Assembly (NCBI GenBank): GCA_044892525.1
Contig: CM097886.1
Span: forward strand, 112,034,001-112,098,000
Direction of reading: 5' to 3'
From: Schmidtea polychroa
Taxonomy: Eukaryota
Length of the DNA stretch: 64,000 nt
Shown piece after piece: positions 4,491 through 64,000 of the stretch. The stretch's first letter is position 1. Every line of letters begins with the position of its first letter. The position numbers and the translations under genes are program-made. The notes beneath the pieces were generated by a model that worked only from the letters and a program-made list of their open reading frames with translations, was not told the DNA's origin and made no database searches.

Positions 4491-5118
4491 TGCCTCAGCT
4501 AGGGTTAGAAGAAATCGAGTTAGGAACAGGTAAAACGAATTAAGGAGATTAAGGAAAAAGAAGATATAGAATAGGAATACGAAAAGATGAAAAGGATCAA
4601 ATCAAAGAGAAAAAGGAAACGTTGGTCAAGAGAACCTAAGGAAATAAAATGTGAATATTATCTTTGTCAAAGCATCAACAGCGAGCGGCAAATCGGACAA
4701 ACTTGAACTTTGATTATTGATTGTGTATTGTTGAGAGAAAATATATTTTGAGAATTAAAAAATATATATTAAATATATACGTTGGGTCGTTTAATGTTTG
4801 GATTACAAGGACACGAGGAGTCAGAGGTAACCGATTTAAATTAACTGAAAACCCAACAATATTTATATTATAAAAAATCAAATCAATGTCCATTAGATGA
4901 TAATCAATTTCCGGTTGGTGTATAAACACATTTCNNNNNNNNNNNNNNNNNNNNNNNNNNNNNNNNNNNNNNNNNNNNNNNNNNNNNNNNNNNNNNNNNN
5001 NNNNNNNNNNNNNNNNNNNNNNNNNNNNNNNNNNNNNNNNNNNNNNNNNNNNNNNNNNNNNNNNNNNNNNNNNNNNNNNNNNNNNNNNNNNNNNNNNNNN
5101 NNNNNNNCTATATTATAG

Positions 5119-5204
5119 TCGAAAATTCTTTCATTAAATACATTATTTGCAGCAAAAGGCTTAAATTATCATTTTATTGTTTTAAATAATAAATGCTGCT
5201 ACCA
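5119..5204 (+). repeat. Near-identical dispersed repeat copy (partner at 43822-43907)
   Basis: TCGAAAATT.TTTCATTAAATACATTATTTGCAGCAAAAGGCTTAAATTATC...GCTGCTACCA occurs twice, each time between N runs. Confidence 0.9.
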
Positions 5205-29369: not shown

Positions 29370-29812
29370 CTTTTTCGCTGAAGATGAGCCACACAATGGA
29401 CGGCCCTCATACGATATGAAGGAGATACAACTGCTTGAATGAAGATCCGCGAGCTACAACAAGACAAATTGCCGAGTTCATTGTTAGTGGCAAAGAAACC
29501 ATGAGACGATTGATTTAAATGAGATTGCGCTACCTCTGCAACGTATGAATCCAATATATGCTAATCGAATCAACAAAGTCGAAAGGAGTTACAATGTGCA
29601 TCGCCAACGCCACAAGTCGTGGCAATGTGCTGAAGATCAATTCGTGACGGAATGATAAACTATCCTTACCAACCAGAAATTCATGCTGAATCTGTTCTGT
29701 AGCTTTAAAGAAATTATTTTTATAGGCGTTCTGCCACCTGGTAAGACTATCAATGTCAAATATTACTGAGACCTATTGGAGAAACTAAATGCAACTGTTT
29801 TTGAAAAAAGAA
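29370..29812 (+). pseudogene. mariner transposase remnant
   Basis: EDEPHNGRP...EDPRATTRQIAE and KFMLNLFCSFKEIIFIGVLPPGKTINVKYY*DLLEKLNA match mariner EDEPRSGRP and KVML..WW...GII..ELLPPG.TIN...Y...L..L. Confidence 0.8.
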
Positions 29813-29869
29813 ACAAAAGAAAAGAAAAGAAAAAAAAGAAAAAGAAAAAACTAAAATTAAAAAACTAAA

Positions 29870-30609
29870 ATAAAACGACAATTATTAAAACATTAGAAGC
29901 ACTAAATTTCATGATATATTTCGACATTTTTTCTGTTACCTTCAGGTAGGAAAGAAAAAGCAACAAATAGATTTAATAAACAAATTATAAAAATTATTAA
30001 TTAAAAAAATTTTTAATTCAATTTAAATAATTAATAATTTACCAAATTTAATTATTTATTGATATTCAATTCAATTAAAAATACGGCTTTTTAAAATTCG
30101 CAATTTTTTTCTTTCTATTTTCTTTTTTTCTTTTTTAACTGTTTTTCTATGTCTTTTCTTTGTTTTTTTTCATTTCTTCTTCTTTGTTTTTTGTTTTTTT
30201 TGTTTTTTTTTCTTTGTTCATTTTTTAGTGTGGGTTATTAAACTACTCGCACATGTATACTCACAATTATTTTGTATGCGCCGAGTAGTTGGATGTTTGT
30301 AATTGTAATTTTAGTTTTTGAAATTTTTTTAATTTTTCTTTGTTTCTTTCTTTTCTTTTTTTCTTTTTTTTAAATCGGGAATTTTACAAAGCCGTACTTT
30401 ATGTGAATTAAATATCATCAATAAATAGTTAAATTTGGCAAATTATTAATTATCTAAATTAAAATAAAATTTTTTTAAATTATAATTTTTATAATTTGTT
30501 TATTAAATTTATTTGTCGTTTTTTCTCTCCTATCTGATGATAATAGAAAATATTTCAAAATATATCATGATATTTAGTGCTTCTAATATTTTAATAATTG
30601 CCGTTTTAT
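29870..30609. repeat. Inverted pair of ~240-bp Penelope pseudo-LTR-like arms, each with a hammerhead-like core
   Basis: 29870-30110 is the reverse complement of about 30370-30609. Cores at 29919-29945 (-) and 30534-30560 (+). Inner hairpin at about 30241-30290; (TTA)n follows at 30614-30670. Confidence 0.75.
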
Positions 30610-30610
30610 G

Positions 30611-30672
<62 letters not shown>

Positions 30673-43821: not shown

Positions 43822-43907
43822 TCGAAAATTTTTTCATTAAATACATTATTTGCAGCAAAAGGCTTAAATTATCATTTTATTGTTTTAGATAATAAATGCT
43901 GCTACCA
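43822..43907 (+). repeat. Near-identical copy of 5119-5204
   Basis: Direct comparison; both copies end at GCTACCA before an N run. Confidence 0.9.
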
Positions 43908-48596: not shown

Positions 48597-51354
48597 CAGG
48601 CATGAGCAACTTGTTTTTGTTAGGGGCCAGTTCAGTCTTTGAAAATGTTTCGGGGGCCGGATGTATTTAGCACGAATTTATTAATATATATTCCAATAAT
48701 ATATCTTTTTAATAGCAAAGATCATTTAAATTTACATGATTAGGCATATATTATATATTATATACTATATACTAGTTGTTATTGGAAGGCTAAATATACA
48801 AACTATGAAAATACCCAAATTTAACTTTAATAATCCCATATTTATAGTTTATTTACTCGCACAAACTCTGGATTGTTCGAATTTTATTTTTTATGCTTCT
48901 CAAGTTTGCATATACTACTCAAATATACCCAACATATCAATATCAATCTTGTTCTGGTTTTGGTCTGTGTGACATTTGACACTTCTTATCACGACATAAA
49001 TCTGAAATATTTGCCTTGATAGTTGATGTTGCTACTCGTAATTCGTTTGACAAGTTATCATCAGTGAGCCGACATCTGTTTTTGCACTTTGTTTGTTTCA
49101 TCTTAGAAAAGAATTGTTCACAGATGTAAGTGCTGGGGAAAAGTGAGACCATTTTCAGCGCATGATATCGGATTGATGGAAACGCTTTCTGAGAAATGTA
49201 GAGTTTGTAGAATTGAATCAAAGAGACATCACGAAACTTTCTTTCCAGATCGCCATTACACTGCAATTCAATGAGCTCTATTTGCATTGATTCTGGTGCT
49301 GTCTCAACATTAACACTGAATGGTTCAGAAAATAGTTTGAAATCATTTTCATGTTCGGCAAAATCAGCAAATCTTGAAGAAAACTGTGTTTTAAATGCAA
49401 TTATGTGTTCATTAAATTTCTTCGTGTTAGCTAAATTTGCATCATTTTTGCAATCAGTTAAATTTGGAAAATGCACCGTAATGTCCTTTGATAATTGATT
49501 CTCCCATAGTTTCAGCTTTGTCTGAAATCCTTTGATATGATCGTAAAGATTATTTATCAGTTGATCCCGGCCTTGTAACTTCGTGTTTAGATCATTCAGA
49601 TGCGTTGTGATGTCAACCAAAAAGGCCAAGTCAAGTAGCCAATTTGCATCGGATAACTCCGGAATTGGTTTCGACTTCATCTCCATAAAAAGTTTAATTT
49701 CTTCACGAAGGCAATAAAAGCGATGCAATACTTTTCCTCTGCTCAGCCAACGAACTTCGCTAAAGTAAATTACATCCGAGTATTCTATCTCAATGCTAAT
49801 GAGAAACTCTTTGAATTGTCGATGATTCAATCCACGTGATCTTATGAAATTCACGGTTTTCACAACAACTGTCATCACATGGTCCATCTTTAGTTCTTTT
49901 ACACATAAATTCTCTTGGTGGATTATGCAATGTGATGCAATTAATTGCTCACTTCCTTTCATTTTAACAAGCTCCGCCTTCAATAAACCAACTACTCCAT
50001 TTTTTATTCCAACCATTGCCGGAGCTCCGTCTGTCGTTATTCCTGTTAGTTTTGGAAGAAAAAGCCCGTTTTCTGCCAATGCAGTTTTGATTTCATCAAA
50101 AACATCTTCTCCAGTTGTAGTCCCTTTCATGCTCGCTAATTTCAACAGTTCTTCCGTAACGTGGAAGTCCTGATCAACCCCACGCACAAAAATTGCTAAC
50201 TGCGCGGTGTCTGTCATATCCGTGCTTTCATCAAGGCATATTGAATATGCTTGAAATAGTTTAGCTTTTTCTTTCAAGATTGTTTCAATGTTTTTTGCAA
50301 TATCATCAATTCGTCTTACGATTGTAAATCGAGAAAGGCTGATATTCGAGAAAAGTTGTTTTTTTTCGGGACAGATACAATCCACAGCAGCATCAATGCA
50401 TTCTTTGACAAACTCCCCATCAGAAAACGGTTTCAGTTTCTTGGCAATTATCTCACTTATCATGAAACTCGCCTTCACAACACACTCAACCTCTTTATTA
50501 ACTTTGATAAAGAATGTCTGTTGCCCTAGAAGTGCTTTTCGGGGAGATTCGATCCTATCTTTCCTTAATTGTCCATGTATCTGATCGAACTTTTCTGTAT
50601 GCTGAGTCTGGTAATGCAGTCTTACATTAAATTCCTTTTTAACGGAAATTGATATCGAGCAAACAAGACAAACGAGCATATTGTTTGATTCTACAAACAG
50701 ATAATCCGATGTCCACTTATCATTAAATACTCGGTGTTCACTGTCAACTTTTCGTTTTTTTGTAATAGTGTTCATCCTCAACTGTGGTTGAAATTGCGTA
50801 TTTTTTTTTATAATATAAACATAAAATTATAAGTTTTGTTCATAGAGGTAGTGAACATAATTTTTGATAATTGAACTGTTGGCTAAAGGAGTTTTATTGT
50901 ACAACCTCACCTGCCTAATAATATGACAACAAGGGCATTAATGCATTCATTCCAGTCACACTCATCCTCACAGTTAAGAGAGAGCTACTAGTACATCCTA
51001 ACCTCTCCTACAGGATTGAATAAAGGCCAGCTATTAGAGTAGCAGTAGCACACCAACGAACTTGGGATCATCTTCAGCCCTGCACAATTATACGCTCTAC
51101 ATGAAAGTTGGAAGTTTCCTTAAAAGAATATAACTAAATACTTCACAGTGAGGTGTAAATGTGGAGAGATGACCGGAAGTTTATTGCTGCACCATCACGC
51201 TTATATTAAATGCGTATTTGTACTAATGGTGTAGCTCTAACGTCAACTGCATACATTCCTGAAAGCTTATCAAGGGCCTGGTTATATGGTGTGGATCAAT
51301 GAACACTGGGGTCCGGTCAAAAGAGGCTCGCGGGCCGTATGTTGCCCATGCCTG
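48597..51354 (-). mobile_element. Full-length hAT transposon (SPIN/Buster group)
   Basis: TIRs CAGGCATGAGCAAC / CAGGCATGGGCAAC (13/14); perfect TSD ATCTAATT (48589-48596, 51355-51362); encloses an intact transposase. Confidence 0.95.
48943..50781 (-). CDS. hAT transposase, SPIN/GTF2IRD2-like, 612 aa, apparently intact
   Basis: KKRKVDSEHRVFNDKW, BED finger CLVC...HYQTQH, LDESTD, TTDGAP, HCIIHQE, VRWLSRG, FPSTYICEQFFS. Confidence 0.95.
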   Translation of the reverse strand: MRMNTITKKRKVDSEHRVFNDKWTSDYLFVESNNMLVCLVCSISISVKKEFNVRLHYQTQHTEKFDQIHGQLRKDRIESPRKALLGQQTFFIKVNKEVECVVKASFMISEIIAKKLKPFSDGEFVKECIDAAVDCICPEKKQLFSNISLSRFTIVRRIDDIAKNIETILKEKAKLFQAYSICLDESTDMTDTAQLAIFVRGVDQDFHVTEELLKLASMKGTTTGEDVFDEIKTALAENGLFLPKLTGITTDGAPAMVGIKNGVVGLLKAELVKMKGSEQLIASHCIIHQENLCVKELKMDHVMTVVVKTVNFIRSRGLNHRQFKEFLISIEIEYSDVIYFSEVRWLSRGKVLHRFYCLREEIKLFMEMKSKPIPELSDANWLLDLAFLVDITTHLNDLNTKLQGRDQLINNLYDHIKGFQTKLKLWENQLSKDITVHFPNLTDCKNDANLANTKKFNEHIIAFKTQFSSRFADFAEHENDFKLFSEPFSVNVETAPESMQIELIELQCNGDLERKFRDVSLIQFYKLYISQKAFPSIRYHALKMVSLFPSTYICEQFFSKMKQTKCKNRCRLTDDNLSNELRVATSTIKANISDLCRDKKCQMSHRPKPEQD

Positions 51355-58564: not shown

Positions 58565-58843
58565 TTAATTATCGTTCCACTGGTCCAACAATTACCAAAA
58601 GAGAAAAATGATTACAACATGTGCCAAAGAAACAATAATTAAACACAAAAATCAAATATTATTCGAAACTATTCTATTAAACTGTTGTGGTTCATTTAGA
58701 TGGGCAATCAATAGATTATAGATTTTTCTGGTATATATATTTCGTTAAATTTCTACGGTAATAACTATTATCATTATTTTTCGTAGCGAAACTGAAACCC
58801 CTTACATTCCAGGACCAATTGTATGCAGATGACAGTAGTGTTG

Positions 58844-60296
58844 AGTAGAGGGAAGTGTGCTCCATGACTCATCAACCCCCCCTCCGATGACTCTTTTTTT
58901 TCGATTTTTTTTTCGAATTTTTTTCCCTGATTTTTCCCCCGATGACTCATCCATAGCAACCGTGGTAACCATGTCAAGGTCATATGACTCATCCATAGCA
59001 ACGGCTGTAACTAGGTCAAGGTCATTCTATTTTAGTAACTAGGTCATATGACTCATCATTTTTGGAACAAACCCAATGACTCATTATTAAAGTATATATG
59101 ACTCATCATTTTTTAAACAAAGACATATTTAATATTTAAACAAAGACATGTAAACAAATATTTAAATAAATACATTTAAACAAAGACACTTAAACAAAGA
59201 CATATAGACAAAGACTCATCGATGACTCATAGTTTAAATAGGGGGTTTCTTTTTTTTGCATACTCCCCCCCCAGTATGACTCATCGATGACTTTTTTGAA
59301 CAAAGACCAATCATTTATTTTTAAAACAAAGACTCATCACACGACTCTAACTTTTAGAACAGACTTCTTTTTTGGTAAACCAAAAATTATTGANNNNNNN
59401 NNNNNNNNNNNNNNNNNNNNNNNNNNNNNNNNNNNNNNNNNNNNNNNNNNNNNNNNNNNNNNNNNNNNNNNNNNNNNNNNNNNNNNNNNNNNNNNNNNNN
59501 NNNNNNNNNNNNNNNNNNNNNNNNNNNNNNNNNNNNNNNNNNNNNNNNNNNNNNNNNNNNNNNNNNNNNNNNNNNNNNNNNNNNNNNNNNNNNNNNNNNN
59601 NNNNNNNNNNNNNNNNNNNNNNNNNNNNNNNNNNNNNNNNNNNNNNNNNNNNNNNNNNNNNNNNNNNNNNNNNNNNNNNNNNNNNNTAGTGGAGTCCTGA
59701 GTCATCGTTCTAATCGTGTGTGATAGTCTTTGTCTTAAAAATAAATGATTGGACTTTGTTCAAAAAAGTTATCGATGAGTCATACAAGGGGGGGGGGCTA
59801 GTGCACAAAAAAAATAATAACTCCTTATTTAAATTATGAGTCATCGATGAGTCTTTGTCTATATGTCTTTGTTTAAATGTCTTTGTTGTAAATGTATTTA
59901 TTTAAATATTTGTTTAAATGTATTTATTTAATTACTTGTTTAAACGTATTTATTTAAATATTTGTTTACATGTCTTTGTTTAAAAAATGATGAGTCATAT
60001 GTACTTTAATAATGAGTCATTGGCTTTGTTCCAAAAACGATGACCTTGACCTAGTTATAGCCGTTGCTATGGATTAGTCATATGACCTTGTTACTAAAAT
60101 AGAATGACCTTGACCTAGTCACCGCCGTTGCTATGGATGAGTCATATGACCTTGGTATGGTTGTCATGGTTACCACGGTTGCTATGGATGAGTCATCGGG
60201 GAAAAATCAGAAGAAAAAAATTCGAAGAAAAAAAAATCGGAAAAAATGAGTCATCGCGGGGGGTATGATGAGTCATGGAGCACACTTCCCTCTACT
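58844..60296. repeat. Long inverted repeat (~500-590-bp arms) with internal motif arrays, unclassified
   Basis: Both arms begin AGTAGAGGGAAGTGTGCTCCATGACTCATCA and align up to ..AAAGACT.ATCACACGA. The centre is mostly N. Confidence 0.92.
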
Positions 60297-60298
60297 GG

Positions 60299-60305
60299 TA
60301 TATAA
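60299..60305 (+). promoter_or_regulatory. TATA box directly after the inverted repeat
   Basis: TATATAA-GGGG lies 2 bp after the arm end. A GT..AG intron-like segment (60371-60402) and an ATG (60405) follow. Confidence 0.5.
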
Positions 60306-60404
60306 GGGGCCTAAAAAGAATTAAATAAAACTACTAAAATTTTAAACTTCAAATCGTTCAAAATTAATAGGTAAATGTTTTTAATATTTAGTATTTATAC
60401 AGTG

Positions 60405-61717
60405 ATGACTTCAACTCTAAAATCAACAAAATTTAATAGTGTTTATTTCAGTAATGGAACAAATTCAATGGAGTCGGACAATTTATGATGGATATCTGAA
60501 GATGCATTGCAACCACGTAGGACAAGACTCAATAGTTATCAACGACAACAGGAAAATTCCAAATTATCTGAGAGTGGATGACAGAAGAATGAAAGCGAGA
60601 ATTTTTAAAGTCAGCAGAAAATTGATAGAAATAATTAAAGAAGGCGAAATTTCTAGCAGAAATGAATATATGCTCCGCATAATTAAAGGAAAAGTGGAAG
60701 TAGTCGCCGAGATTCAAAGAATCTGGTGGGAATTACACCAAGACTCATCCTGGAAAATGTAGAAAGAAAGATTGAGGAAGAAATTGAGAGCATTAGATGA
60801 GGATGCAAGAGTTGTATTGGAATAACGGATTCCAAATGAGGAAAATGAAGTCCCACAGCATATTTCGAAATTGTCAGATGATTACGATGGAAATGTTCTA
60901 CGGAAATGAACTATGAAGGAAAATAATAAAAAATCTCATACCTGACACCAAGAGGAAGATTGCGTCACTTCAATTCAAGCATTCATGGCATCACGGAGAT
61001 TGCCAGTAGGAACCAATGCGACCAGTATACGGAAATGAGAGAGGTCCAAAAATTGACAGTTTGGAAAATATTGGTGGGACATGATCTTTATGCAGAATTT
61101 GAAAATCTAAAAATGTGGACATATCAATTGCATGGAATTCGGGATTTAGCGACGGCACAGGCACTTCAATTGAAAGGAATAACAAGGAGAGGAGAATACT
61201 TCAAACTCAAAACAGTTGTTGAAGAATTATTCGGAGAACAGACGCAGAAGGGTATTCATTCAGCATTGAAAGACGTCAAAAATATTCGAAGAGTGTACAG
61301 GAAAATCGAAAATGTGTGGGTCGATGATGTAAAAATCCAAAAAATGATTCCATTAAAGAAATATTCGTTAGCCGAATATCAAAAGCTTCATGCGTGCCAA
61401 CAACGAATGGAACATTTTTTGAAACAGTTGAACAAGTCGATCTCACAAAGGGTGAGCAAATGGAAATTGACGAAGCACCACTGAAAAAGGCCACTGAAGA
61501 AAATGTAGATGCGATCGAGGAAAATATTGGCATGATGATGAGTTTGTCTATTCAGAGAATTCCGGCATCATTTGAGCATGGACCCATTCTTCAATTGGAG
61601 GAGAGAAAAGAAATCTACAATGAAAATCGAAGCCAGCGATTCCATCATTGTGCATGGAATTATTTATCATCGAGAAAAAAACATTTACCCGCTACAAGAG
61701 TGAGCCGGGAAACATAG
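60405..61717 (+). pseudogene. Decayed coding region of unknown identity
   Basis: Consecutive overlapping plus-strand ORFs (60439-60762, 60960-61484, 61394-61717) with coding-like composition; AATAAA at about 61765. Confidence 0.5.
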
Positions 61718-62365
61718 AGTTAAAAATTGACTTATTGTAATTTATTCGAATATATATATTAATTAATAAAAATGTTCTTGTCTTGAATATTATGGCGTCC
61801 CATCCCATAAATGAATTAATTAAATCAAACAAACCAATAAATAAAAGAAATGACAAAAGAAATGAGTCGAATCACAAACCTACATAAGAAAATTTNNNNN
61901 NNNNNNNNNNNNNNNNNNNNNNNNNNNNNNNNNNNNNNNNNNNNNNNNNNNNNNNNNNNNNNNNNNNNNNNNNNNNNNNNNNNNNNNNNNNNNNNNNNNN
62001 NNNNNNNNNNNNNNNNNNNNNNNNNNNNNNNNNNNNNNNNNNNNNNNNNNNNNNNNNNNNNNNNNNNNNNNNNNNNNNNNNNNNNNNNNNNNNNNNNNNN
62101 NNNNNNNNNNNNNNNNNNNNNNNNNNNNNNNNNNNNNNNNNNNNNNNNNNNNNNNNNNNNNNNNNNNNNNNNNNNNNCCTCAAACAATTTTACACTGTTC
62201 AATAGTTTGATTGATCTATATGACAAAAACAAAAAGAAACCCTAAACTCACTGCAACACTTTCTCAGTTATTTGATGTTACCAATGTTAATAAAAATGGC
62301 AAAGCATGGAGGATAAATAGCTCTACCTGAGGCAAGTTAAAAGTGGAAGAAAGATTGGCTATTCA

Positions 62366-63610
62366 ATGGTCAATCAAACCCCTGTGGAATCAATCCACCC
62401 AAGAAAACGAATCCCACTATCAAATCTCTACCTCAATCCAGCTCTTCTCAATTGCAACCCACGCAAACACATAAAACTGTCTCAGATTCTTTGGATTCTG
62501 AAACCTCTACTTCTTCACCCGAGTCGCCAACCTCTTCTTCAACGTCATCTTCAACGTCATCTTCTCCTGAATACAAACGGAAATACCAAAGAGCAAGAAC
62601 TACAACAGCGGGTTTTTTTAGTACCGAAAACCAACAGTTCTACACATAAATATCGTGACGTTCTTGCAACCATTGCTGAACAGGATCATGATGTGCCGGT
62701 TCCAAGTCAGGCGGGTGTCTGGAAGCGAGAAATCTTTGAAGGACAGAGAATGAAAACCAAAATTGTTCAAAAACTTCACAGCAAAGATCCCTACTGTCTC
62801 CAGTTTGATGGTAAAAGACTGCGAGGGGAAGAGTATCAAGTAGTTCTGCTAAAAAATATGACAACCGAAATCAAACTCAGTATTCTTAAATGTGATAGTG
62901 GTTCTGTCACAGCCATTCACAAGGAACTACATCAGCTAATTGATGAAATCCTATATGAGGGATAGTAAAGCTCATATATGATGATGTCTTGAGCAAGGGC
63001 TTTAAGAAGCCACAATATATTGGCTGTCAGCACCATGTACTCGACCTTCTGAAGCATGTCATGAATTTTCTTATTCAAGATCCATCGAGCAGACCAGAAC
63101 TCAATTATTCCTTCATTGACAAATTAACAGAAAACTGTCTCTCTTCAGGCTGATTACCACCTCATTGAGATAGATGATGTTAACACATGTGAGAACCCTG
63201 GATGGCAAGATGATTTAAAATTCTTATATGAAGTCTGTAAGGCATATCGTCATTACGAAACGACTTCACATTGACCTCGAATCAGCTGGAAGAAACTCCC
63301 AAATATACACCATGCAAGATGGAATTCACGTGCAATATATGCTGTTAGCATTATTTCTGGTACCAGAGTGGCGCAGCATTCAGCATGCGACTTCATCTGT
63401 TACGAATGGACAAACGCTTGGTTCCATTCGCAACACTACTATGAAGCGTCCTTCAATGAACTGTTTACCTAACTCAACAATATAAAATGCAAGAAGGCAA
63501 TTAAGTGTTTAAATATGCATTGCTTAGTCGAGGAGTCATTAATTGACATTATAAGATCTAACTAAACTGCTGAACATGCTGTTAAACTGATGGAAGAACT
63601 CCATGCGAAA
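62366..63610 (+). pseudogene. Divergent hAT transposase (hATm/hATx-like) pseudogene
   Basis: YCLQFDGKRL..EEYQVV; YIGCQHHVLDL; LPNIHHARWNSRAIY; SN*TAEHAVKLMEE, paralleling hATm HWDGK, CRHH, HHARW..KAIY and ERGVKL. Confidence 0.7.
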
Positions 63611-63612
63611 TC

Positions 63613-64000
63613 GAGAAAAATTGAATTTATGAAATATTTTTTATTCTGTGAAGATCTGGAAACAACCACAATAGAAAAATATATCTTCCAATGTGTGAAG
63701 GACTTCTTTGCAAAATATGGCTTAAATATAATAATTATTGGTTTTGTGTGTACCGGCGATACCCCTGTTATGATTGAAAATAAATCAGAGTCTTTTACAT
63801 TCATGAATGACTCACTGTTTTCTTCATCGACATGCTTTGACATCAAAACATTTCCGCCAGTTGAATAAAGTTTTCGACACTCAGTTAAGACTATAAACTG
63901 CTTTAGACGTTTGTGAATATTTTGGATGTGAGCATTTAGTTTTGGTTTTCTACACATAAGTCACCTGGTTGTCACGTGGAAAAGCTATCACGTTGTTTTC
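63613..64000 (+). pseudogene. Buster/Charlie (ZBED5/ZBED8-like) hAT transposase fragment
   Basis: YFLFCEDLETTTIEKYIFQCVKDFFAKYGL...GFVCTGDTPVM matches FLFC..LETTT....IF..V..FF...GL......CTDGAP.M. Confidence 0.75.

Follow-up and report, generated by a model that had tools for sequence, protein, structure and literature searches.

An inverted repeat of 1.45 kb is located towards the right end of the window, by which we mean the whole stretch of 64,000 nucleotides of Schmidtea polychroa DNA that was analysed, and it raises the question of what kind of element it is and how it came to lie where it does. The original prediction described it as built like an enhancer that points outward into a TATA box, and offered two readings: an unclassified foldback transposon with long terminal inverted repeats (TIRs), or an end-to-end ITR junction of a linear DNA virus or Polinton-like element acting as a bidirectional promoter. 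The repeat and its surroundings are composed of the following features (positions in the window):

58753..58838, plus strand: first ~85 bp of element T, a DNA-transposon-like repeat with matches at 39 other places in the genome; holds the minus-strand TAAGGGG
58839..58843, plus strand: 5 bp in which the usual T sequence is reverse-complemented, from a comparison with 11 T copies
58844..59393, plus strand: left Maverick/Polinton TIR of subfamily A, with the shared arm up to 59342 followed by A-specific inner sequence
59394..59686, no strand: masked centre; judging from paralogues, presumably in the main an (AAT)n microsatellite joining both arms
59687..60296, minus strand: right Maverick/Polinton TIR of subfamily B, with B-specific inner sequence (59687-59717) and the shared arm (59718-60296)
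60297..60302, plus strand: GGTATA, overlapping the TATA box; also present within those copies of repeat R that are not interrupted
60297..61890, plus strand: repeat R, a disrupted gene for a DEDDh exonuclease resembling ISG20/ISG20L2; the 40 candidates scored yielded 63 matches
62199..63634, plus strand: further part of element T, colinear with the first part and on its strand, after a gap of ~580 bp in T

Alignment of the two arms (58844-59342 and 59718-60296) shows them to be inverted copies of each other, with 468 of 495 aligned columns identical, in addition to many indels; 293 nt lie between the TIRs, and the remnant holds no genes. The left arm contains eight copies of TGACTCA and six of AACAAAG as well as CCATAGCAAC (at 58951 and 58993), TCAAGGTCA (at 58974 and 59016) and GTAAACAAATA (at 59150). 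Arm alignment and motif search confirmed the predicted repeat and every motif position given for it; the motifs are presumably matches to the consensus words of AP-1, RFX, NR5A, Forkhead and Sox. The window has 16 copies of ATGACTCAT, every one of them inside the arms (16/16), compared with 0.72 expected from shuffles; as the arms consist of tandem units of 42, 26 and 14 bp, these copies do not count as independent. The elements predicted next to the right arm are all present: TATATAAGGGG begins at 60299, 2 bp past the end of the arm, and is followed by a GT-AG segment of 32 nt (60371-60402) and an ATG at 60405, whose frame is closed after 27 codons. The TAAGGGG reported for the minus strand of the left flank is found at 58798-58804. 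No flanking duplication of 2 to 12 bp could be detected, the outer 6-mers being GTGTTG and GGTATA, which agrees with the earlier statement that no duplication of 4-9 bp fits. The accompanying proposal of a TA duplication in an AGTACT target, however, rested on misplaced ends: the other copies examined start with AGTAGA (one reads AGTGGA), and AGTA/TACT is thus part of the element and not of the target.

The window arms are the TIRs of a Maverick/Polinton family that is abundant in the genome. When the genome was searched with the outer arm, the 40 candidates scored yielded 87 matches, many of which form inward-facing pairs 7-15 kb apart, and the 28-nt terminus has 447 exact matches in the genome (229 on the plus and 218 on the minus strand), whereas the reversed control has none. 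A 6-bp target duplication is perfect in 35 of 38 pairs, contains a single mismatch in one and is absent from two; these pairs were picked by hand from the match lists and include two that are duplicates of one insertion, and C2:120.85 and C2:79.03, for which the right terminus was not found, and C1:136.816, a duplicate left end, were omitted from the count. Unrelated flanks with a consistent duplication in the other copies are the very finding that the original prediction had named as speaking against it. Several copies are 16.5-17.2 kb long, and the TIRs, which start with AGTAGA, span ~1.4 kb in four of four elements of subfamily A and 2-4 kb in the four elements of subfamily B examined.

The long copies encode the proteins expected of such a family. 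DNA_pol_B_2 is matched at E=2.4e-28 by the C-terminal 678 aa of the pPolB frame of a long copy, although the whole 1328-aa frame gave no such match. An integrase is indicated by rve, which lies above the cutoff in one copy (E=2.7e-8) and just below it in two more (E=6e-7), and a packaging ATPase (Pox_A32, E=1.2e-6) and an adenain-like protease (Peptidase_C5, E=1.4e-7; adenovirus protease, E=2.4e-4) were found in long copies. For the capsid candidate, a single-sequence fold reached a pLDDT of 29, and an alignment-based model with a pLDDT of 92.9 was used instead; Foldseek relates this model to the capsids of iridovirus, PBCV-1 and mavirus (best E=4.7e-16), and the capsid protein of the family is predicted to fold as a double jelly-roll. 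A Pfam search over 113 capsid homologues produced two double jelly-roll matches only, both of them weak. The candidate for the minor capsid protein (351 aa) has no Pfam match, and the Atlas clusters closest to it consist of unnamed viral proteins, with recognition below threshold. Several further observations were made on individual copies. Members of the family contain a short TBP-like ORF (L103:3663-4118, plus strand; L029:5016-5471, minus strand; Pfam TBP E=2.6e-16) with 128 homologues, and one copy shows a weak Bcl-2-like match below the cutoff (L021:8086-8418, plus strand; E=0.006). The integrase ORF of several copies contains an in-frame (ATT)n tract, which is either an intron or a poly-residue insert (L094:6691-6786, L103:1899-1994). 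A 16.7-kb copy at C1:9.63 Mb (L094/L095) has a polymerase ORF at both sides in opposite orientation, which suggests that its inverted repeats were extended by recombination.

Passages of the literature on Mavericks/Polintons define these elements by long TIRs, ends starting with AG, 6-bp duplications and the presence of pPolB, integrase, ATPase, protease and capsid genes, and give a mean size of 16,862 bp for vertebrate elements (PMC8097293; PMC6431247; for adintoviruses: PMC8502044). The family described here resembles them in its long TIRs, AG ends, 6-bp duplications, size of ~16.7 kb and in all five of these genes; the original description as a Polinton-like element with long TIRs was therefore correct, and only the label "unclassified" has to be given up in view of the genes and the 6-bp duplications. 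Unlike the elements in the literature, the family has the terminus AGTAGA instead of (AGT)2 or (AG)3, and its TIRs (~1.4 kb in A, 2-4 kb in B) hold microsatellites. The window copy in turn differs from an intact Maverick/Polinton in that it lacks both the genes and a matching 6-bp duplication.

Inside the shared arm, the copies of the family continue in one of two ways, which were named A and B. Both arms could be typed in 29 pairs, 15 of which are A/A, 13 B/B and one A/B; in nine of the 38 pairs, an arm was not typable. No type could be assigned to the left arm at C1:6.48 Mb. The window foldback combines an A arm on the left, which is 93% identical over 549 nt to the copies L003 and L021, with a B arm on the right. 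When the inner 170 nt are compared, the ten nearest arms of the left arm are all of type A (10/10) and nine of the ten nearest arms of the right arm are of type B, and in the resulting ranking of 72 arms, the two window arms come only 52nd and 44th in each other's lists. By whole-arm scores, in contrast, they come 4th and 5th in these lists of 72, and both end in the rarer GGG terminus, which is found at 31 of 447 termini. The inner ends of other copies lead, within 60 nt, into an A-rich triplet tract in A arms (29/29) and into a T-rich one in B arms (36/36), and the first microsatellite reads AAT inward in an A arm and ATT inward in a B arm. Because of this opposite inward reading, the microsatellites of a left A arm and a right B arm would be direct, co-oriented repeats. 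The tracts of other copies are 27-411 and 87-603 nt long, ranges that include the 293 nt of the window centre, and judging from the inner ends of the paralogues, this centre would consist mostly of an (AAT)n tract.

Related structures were seen elsewhere. An A/B hybrid of 9197 bp with a perfect duplication (L150, C1:41634363-41643559) combines an interior of type A with a right arm of type B. A second short foldback of 1763 bp (L093, C1:64450034-64451796) has GGG termini, no duplication, a B-like left and an A right arm, and an unrelated spacer. The window itself contains another inverted repeat (29804-30657; 192 nt, 81%) around A/T-rich simple sequence, and a short repeat adjoins (ATT)n tracts at 5108-5181 and 43822-43884 of the window as well as at L022:1861-1934 and in L043; it is possibly a microsatellite-associated element.

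The flanks of the foldback are two different repeats. On the left, element T is represented by its positions 1-86, and the 11 copies of T that were fetched have a common start and a common continuation. The 5 bp at 58839-58843 occur in this form in none of these 11 copies, most of which carry the reverse complement, and a micro-inversion is possible. Before T resumes at 62199, ~580 bp of it are missing, up to 282 of which could sit under another masked stretch. The TAAGGGG of the left flank lies in this end of a different transposon. On the right, the flank starts inside R, which has a TATA box (60299) and a GT-AG segment (60371-60402) of its own and lacks its upstream part here. R has an (ATT)n 3' tail; its copies are 5'-truncated at varied points, so that some of the absent upstream sequence may never have existed at this site. 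The exonuclease remnant in the window matches RNase_T below the Pfam cutoff (E=3e-4), an open copy elsewhere matches ISG20L2 at E=4.7e-6, and no homologue of the window fragment was obtained in a protein database search, nor was any phage DNA match to R. Further ORFs are located upstream of the R copies at L048/L049, R was also seen at L108, and R may represent the final gene of a more extensive mobile element. Upstream of another R copy, fragments of a Monjiviricetes-type fusion glycoprotein and of a retroviral aspartyl protease were observed (L107:2163-3064, plus strand), which likely represent an env-bearing LTR retroelement. The window also contains an open frame of 627 aa on the minus strand (48943-50826) with matches to zf-C2H2_12 and DUF4371, which we take to be a likely SPIN/hAT-type transposase.

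Other copies of R read through GGTATA-TAAGGGG with upstream sequence of their own and without a Polinton arm. The TATA box, the intron and the ATG therefore belong to R and not to the arm, and the closeness of the TATA box to the Polinton arm is due to chance, a by-product of the insertion site. In agreement with this, TATA-like words within 60 nt outside other termini of the family are not enriched (6 of 98 flanks versus 49 of 903 background windows). The idea that the arm points into the TATA box as a promoter is thus not borne out. Of the 6-bp target duplication made by the B-type insertion, one half likely survives as the GGTATA at 60297-60302.

How was a foldback with two different arms and two different flanks formed? 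Arm identity, the subfamily of each arm, the missing duplication, the mismatched flanks and the losses in T and upstream of R were observed directly. Each of the outer ends is an exact terminus, and their targets are unrelated, which indicates two joins made by integrase. In our judgement, the foldback probably derives from two neighbouring Polinton insertions, one of type A and one of type B, that were joined by a deletion at their predicted AAT microsatellites. In the order that we infer, R would have inserted into transposon T, a B-type element would then have inserted at the TATA box of R, and an A-type element near the start of T. Recombination or end-joining between the co-oriented microsatellites of the left A arm and the right B arm would have removed both interiors and everything between the two insertions, so that only the outer ends remained, both of them precise and each in a target unrelated to the other. 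A genome search for the partner halves of both window duplications gave no matches (0), as predicted by the deletion and equally by other losses.

The shared GGG terminus and the high whole-arm ranks count against two separate insertions, as they would fit a common origin or conversion, and the mixed arms alone do not prove two insertions, since the A/B hybrid at C1:41.63 Mb carries a perfect duplication. A single insertion of such a hybrid could also have given rise to the foldback, by an internal collapse between its co-oriented microsatellites and the loss of one flank through a deletion ending exactly at the terminus, for instance by integrase attack on a nearby site. The existence of the hybrid and the closeness of the arms over their whole length, down to the rare terminus, are in line with this scenario. 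However, two rare events would be required, hybrids with a duplication make up one of 29 typed pairs, and the inner arm sequences group with different subfamilies; we regard a hybrid origin as unlikely, although it is the main rival. It is far less probable that the assembly erroneously joined two unlinked loci through a microsatellite. No read or contig was seen across the centre, and contigs cross the left junction by just 26 and 28 letters, short of the 31 letters required, and may derive from the assembled sample. Nevertheless, T is found on both sides, on the same strand and in order, which would be rare for a join of unrelated loci; the lack of cover at 58815-58835 in one run of another study proves nothing. 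Slightly less credible still is that the window holds one copy of a mobile, MITE-like family of miniature Polinton derivatives. Both termini are intact and a second foldback of less than 2 kb exists at C1:64.45 Mb, but neither of the short foldbacks has a duplication, their centres differ, and they are the only short pairs among the termini listed (the first 100 of 447 and all 31 with GGG). The end-to-end ITR junction with a bidirectional promoter and a central terminal hairpin, for which the outward-pointing enhancer-like motifs and the TATA box 2 bp away had spoken, is hardly conceivable and was refuted, since the AGTAGA termini are outermost and face host-side DNA whereas the inner ends face the centre, where a junction would place the termini, and since the flanks on either side are repeats of unrelated kinds, the minus strand has no ORF of 60 aa from 56378 up to the arm, viral domains are absent from the seven flank ORFs scanned and TATA words are not enriched at the termini of the family. 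A densovirus or bidnavirus ITR junction was ruled out by the outermost termini and by the lack of parvoviral domains in the same seven ORFs.

Two neighbouring insertions joined by deletion would leave likely nothing but ordinary transposon debris, and the remnant probably does nothing beyond whatever cis-regulatory activity its arms keep. The motif make-up on which the predicted enhancer was based is a property of the whole family: TGACTCA is present in 71 of 71 arms (median of 11), TCAAGGTCA and AACAAAG in 71 each, CCATAGCAAC in 68 and GTAAACAAATA in 37. In this respect the original description holds, whereas the outward bidirectional promoter has to be dropped. Judged from the motifs, the AP-1-like sites of the family arms may form a real enhancer. 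Among the runs recorded as RNA, none was listed as containing the stretch, which is evidence in neither direction. It is equally conceivable that the replication proteins of the element itself bind to the tandem subterminal motifs, for which the ends of adenoviruses provide the analogy. It is tempting to speculate, although we consider this rather doubtful, that the TIRs of the family represent a conserved multi-factor enhancer with AP-1-, RFX-, NR5A-, Fox- and Sox/TCF-like sites at at least 447 termini, which would activate Polintons in differentiating or wounded cells, and that neighbours collapse through the opposite polarity of their microsatellites into gene-less double enhancers able to drive an adjacent captured promoter. 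Planarian Polintons are repressed by SMEDWI-2 and gain H3K4me3 and RNA during differentiation, according to passages of PMC8532177 and PMC10558129. Such an activation would fit the motif-rich arms; the source passages name neither a family nor motifs. A search of the papers accessible to the analysis returned none on Polinton TIRs as enhancers, and passages of one preprint, on the eri-6/7 locus of Caenorhabditis elegans, mention putative transcription factor sites in Polinton repeats of nematodes (bioRxiv 10.1101/2024.01.15.575659).

The window locus is a dead remnant and matters little by itself. It does show how neighbouring Polintons could plausibly lose the DNA that lies between them by way of their own microsatellites; little is in print on the cis-regulatory content of Polinton TIRs, and the arms offer a direct reporter test of element activation. 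Two known systems can be compared with it. One is the miniaturisation of TIR transposons into MITEs through microhomology, by internal deletion at short repeats (PMC3814204). As in that process, a deletion at repeats would have left two ends; unlike such MITEs, which spread as families, the window copy lacks a duplication, and a second identical copy was not found. The closer parallel is eri-6/7, for which the passages of the above preprint describe Polinton remnants that consist of TIRs only and that arose from several neighbouring insertions and recombination. The window foldback is likewise a TIR-only remnant, probably of neighbouring Polintons; however, the repeats of eri-6/7 flank host exons and support trans-splicing, whereas the window arms flank a centre of microsatellite size and lie within other repeats. 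Thus, TIR-only remnants of Polintons are already known from eri-6/7, as far as those passages describe the locus, and the window locus is a further example.
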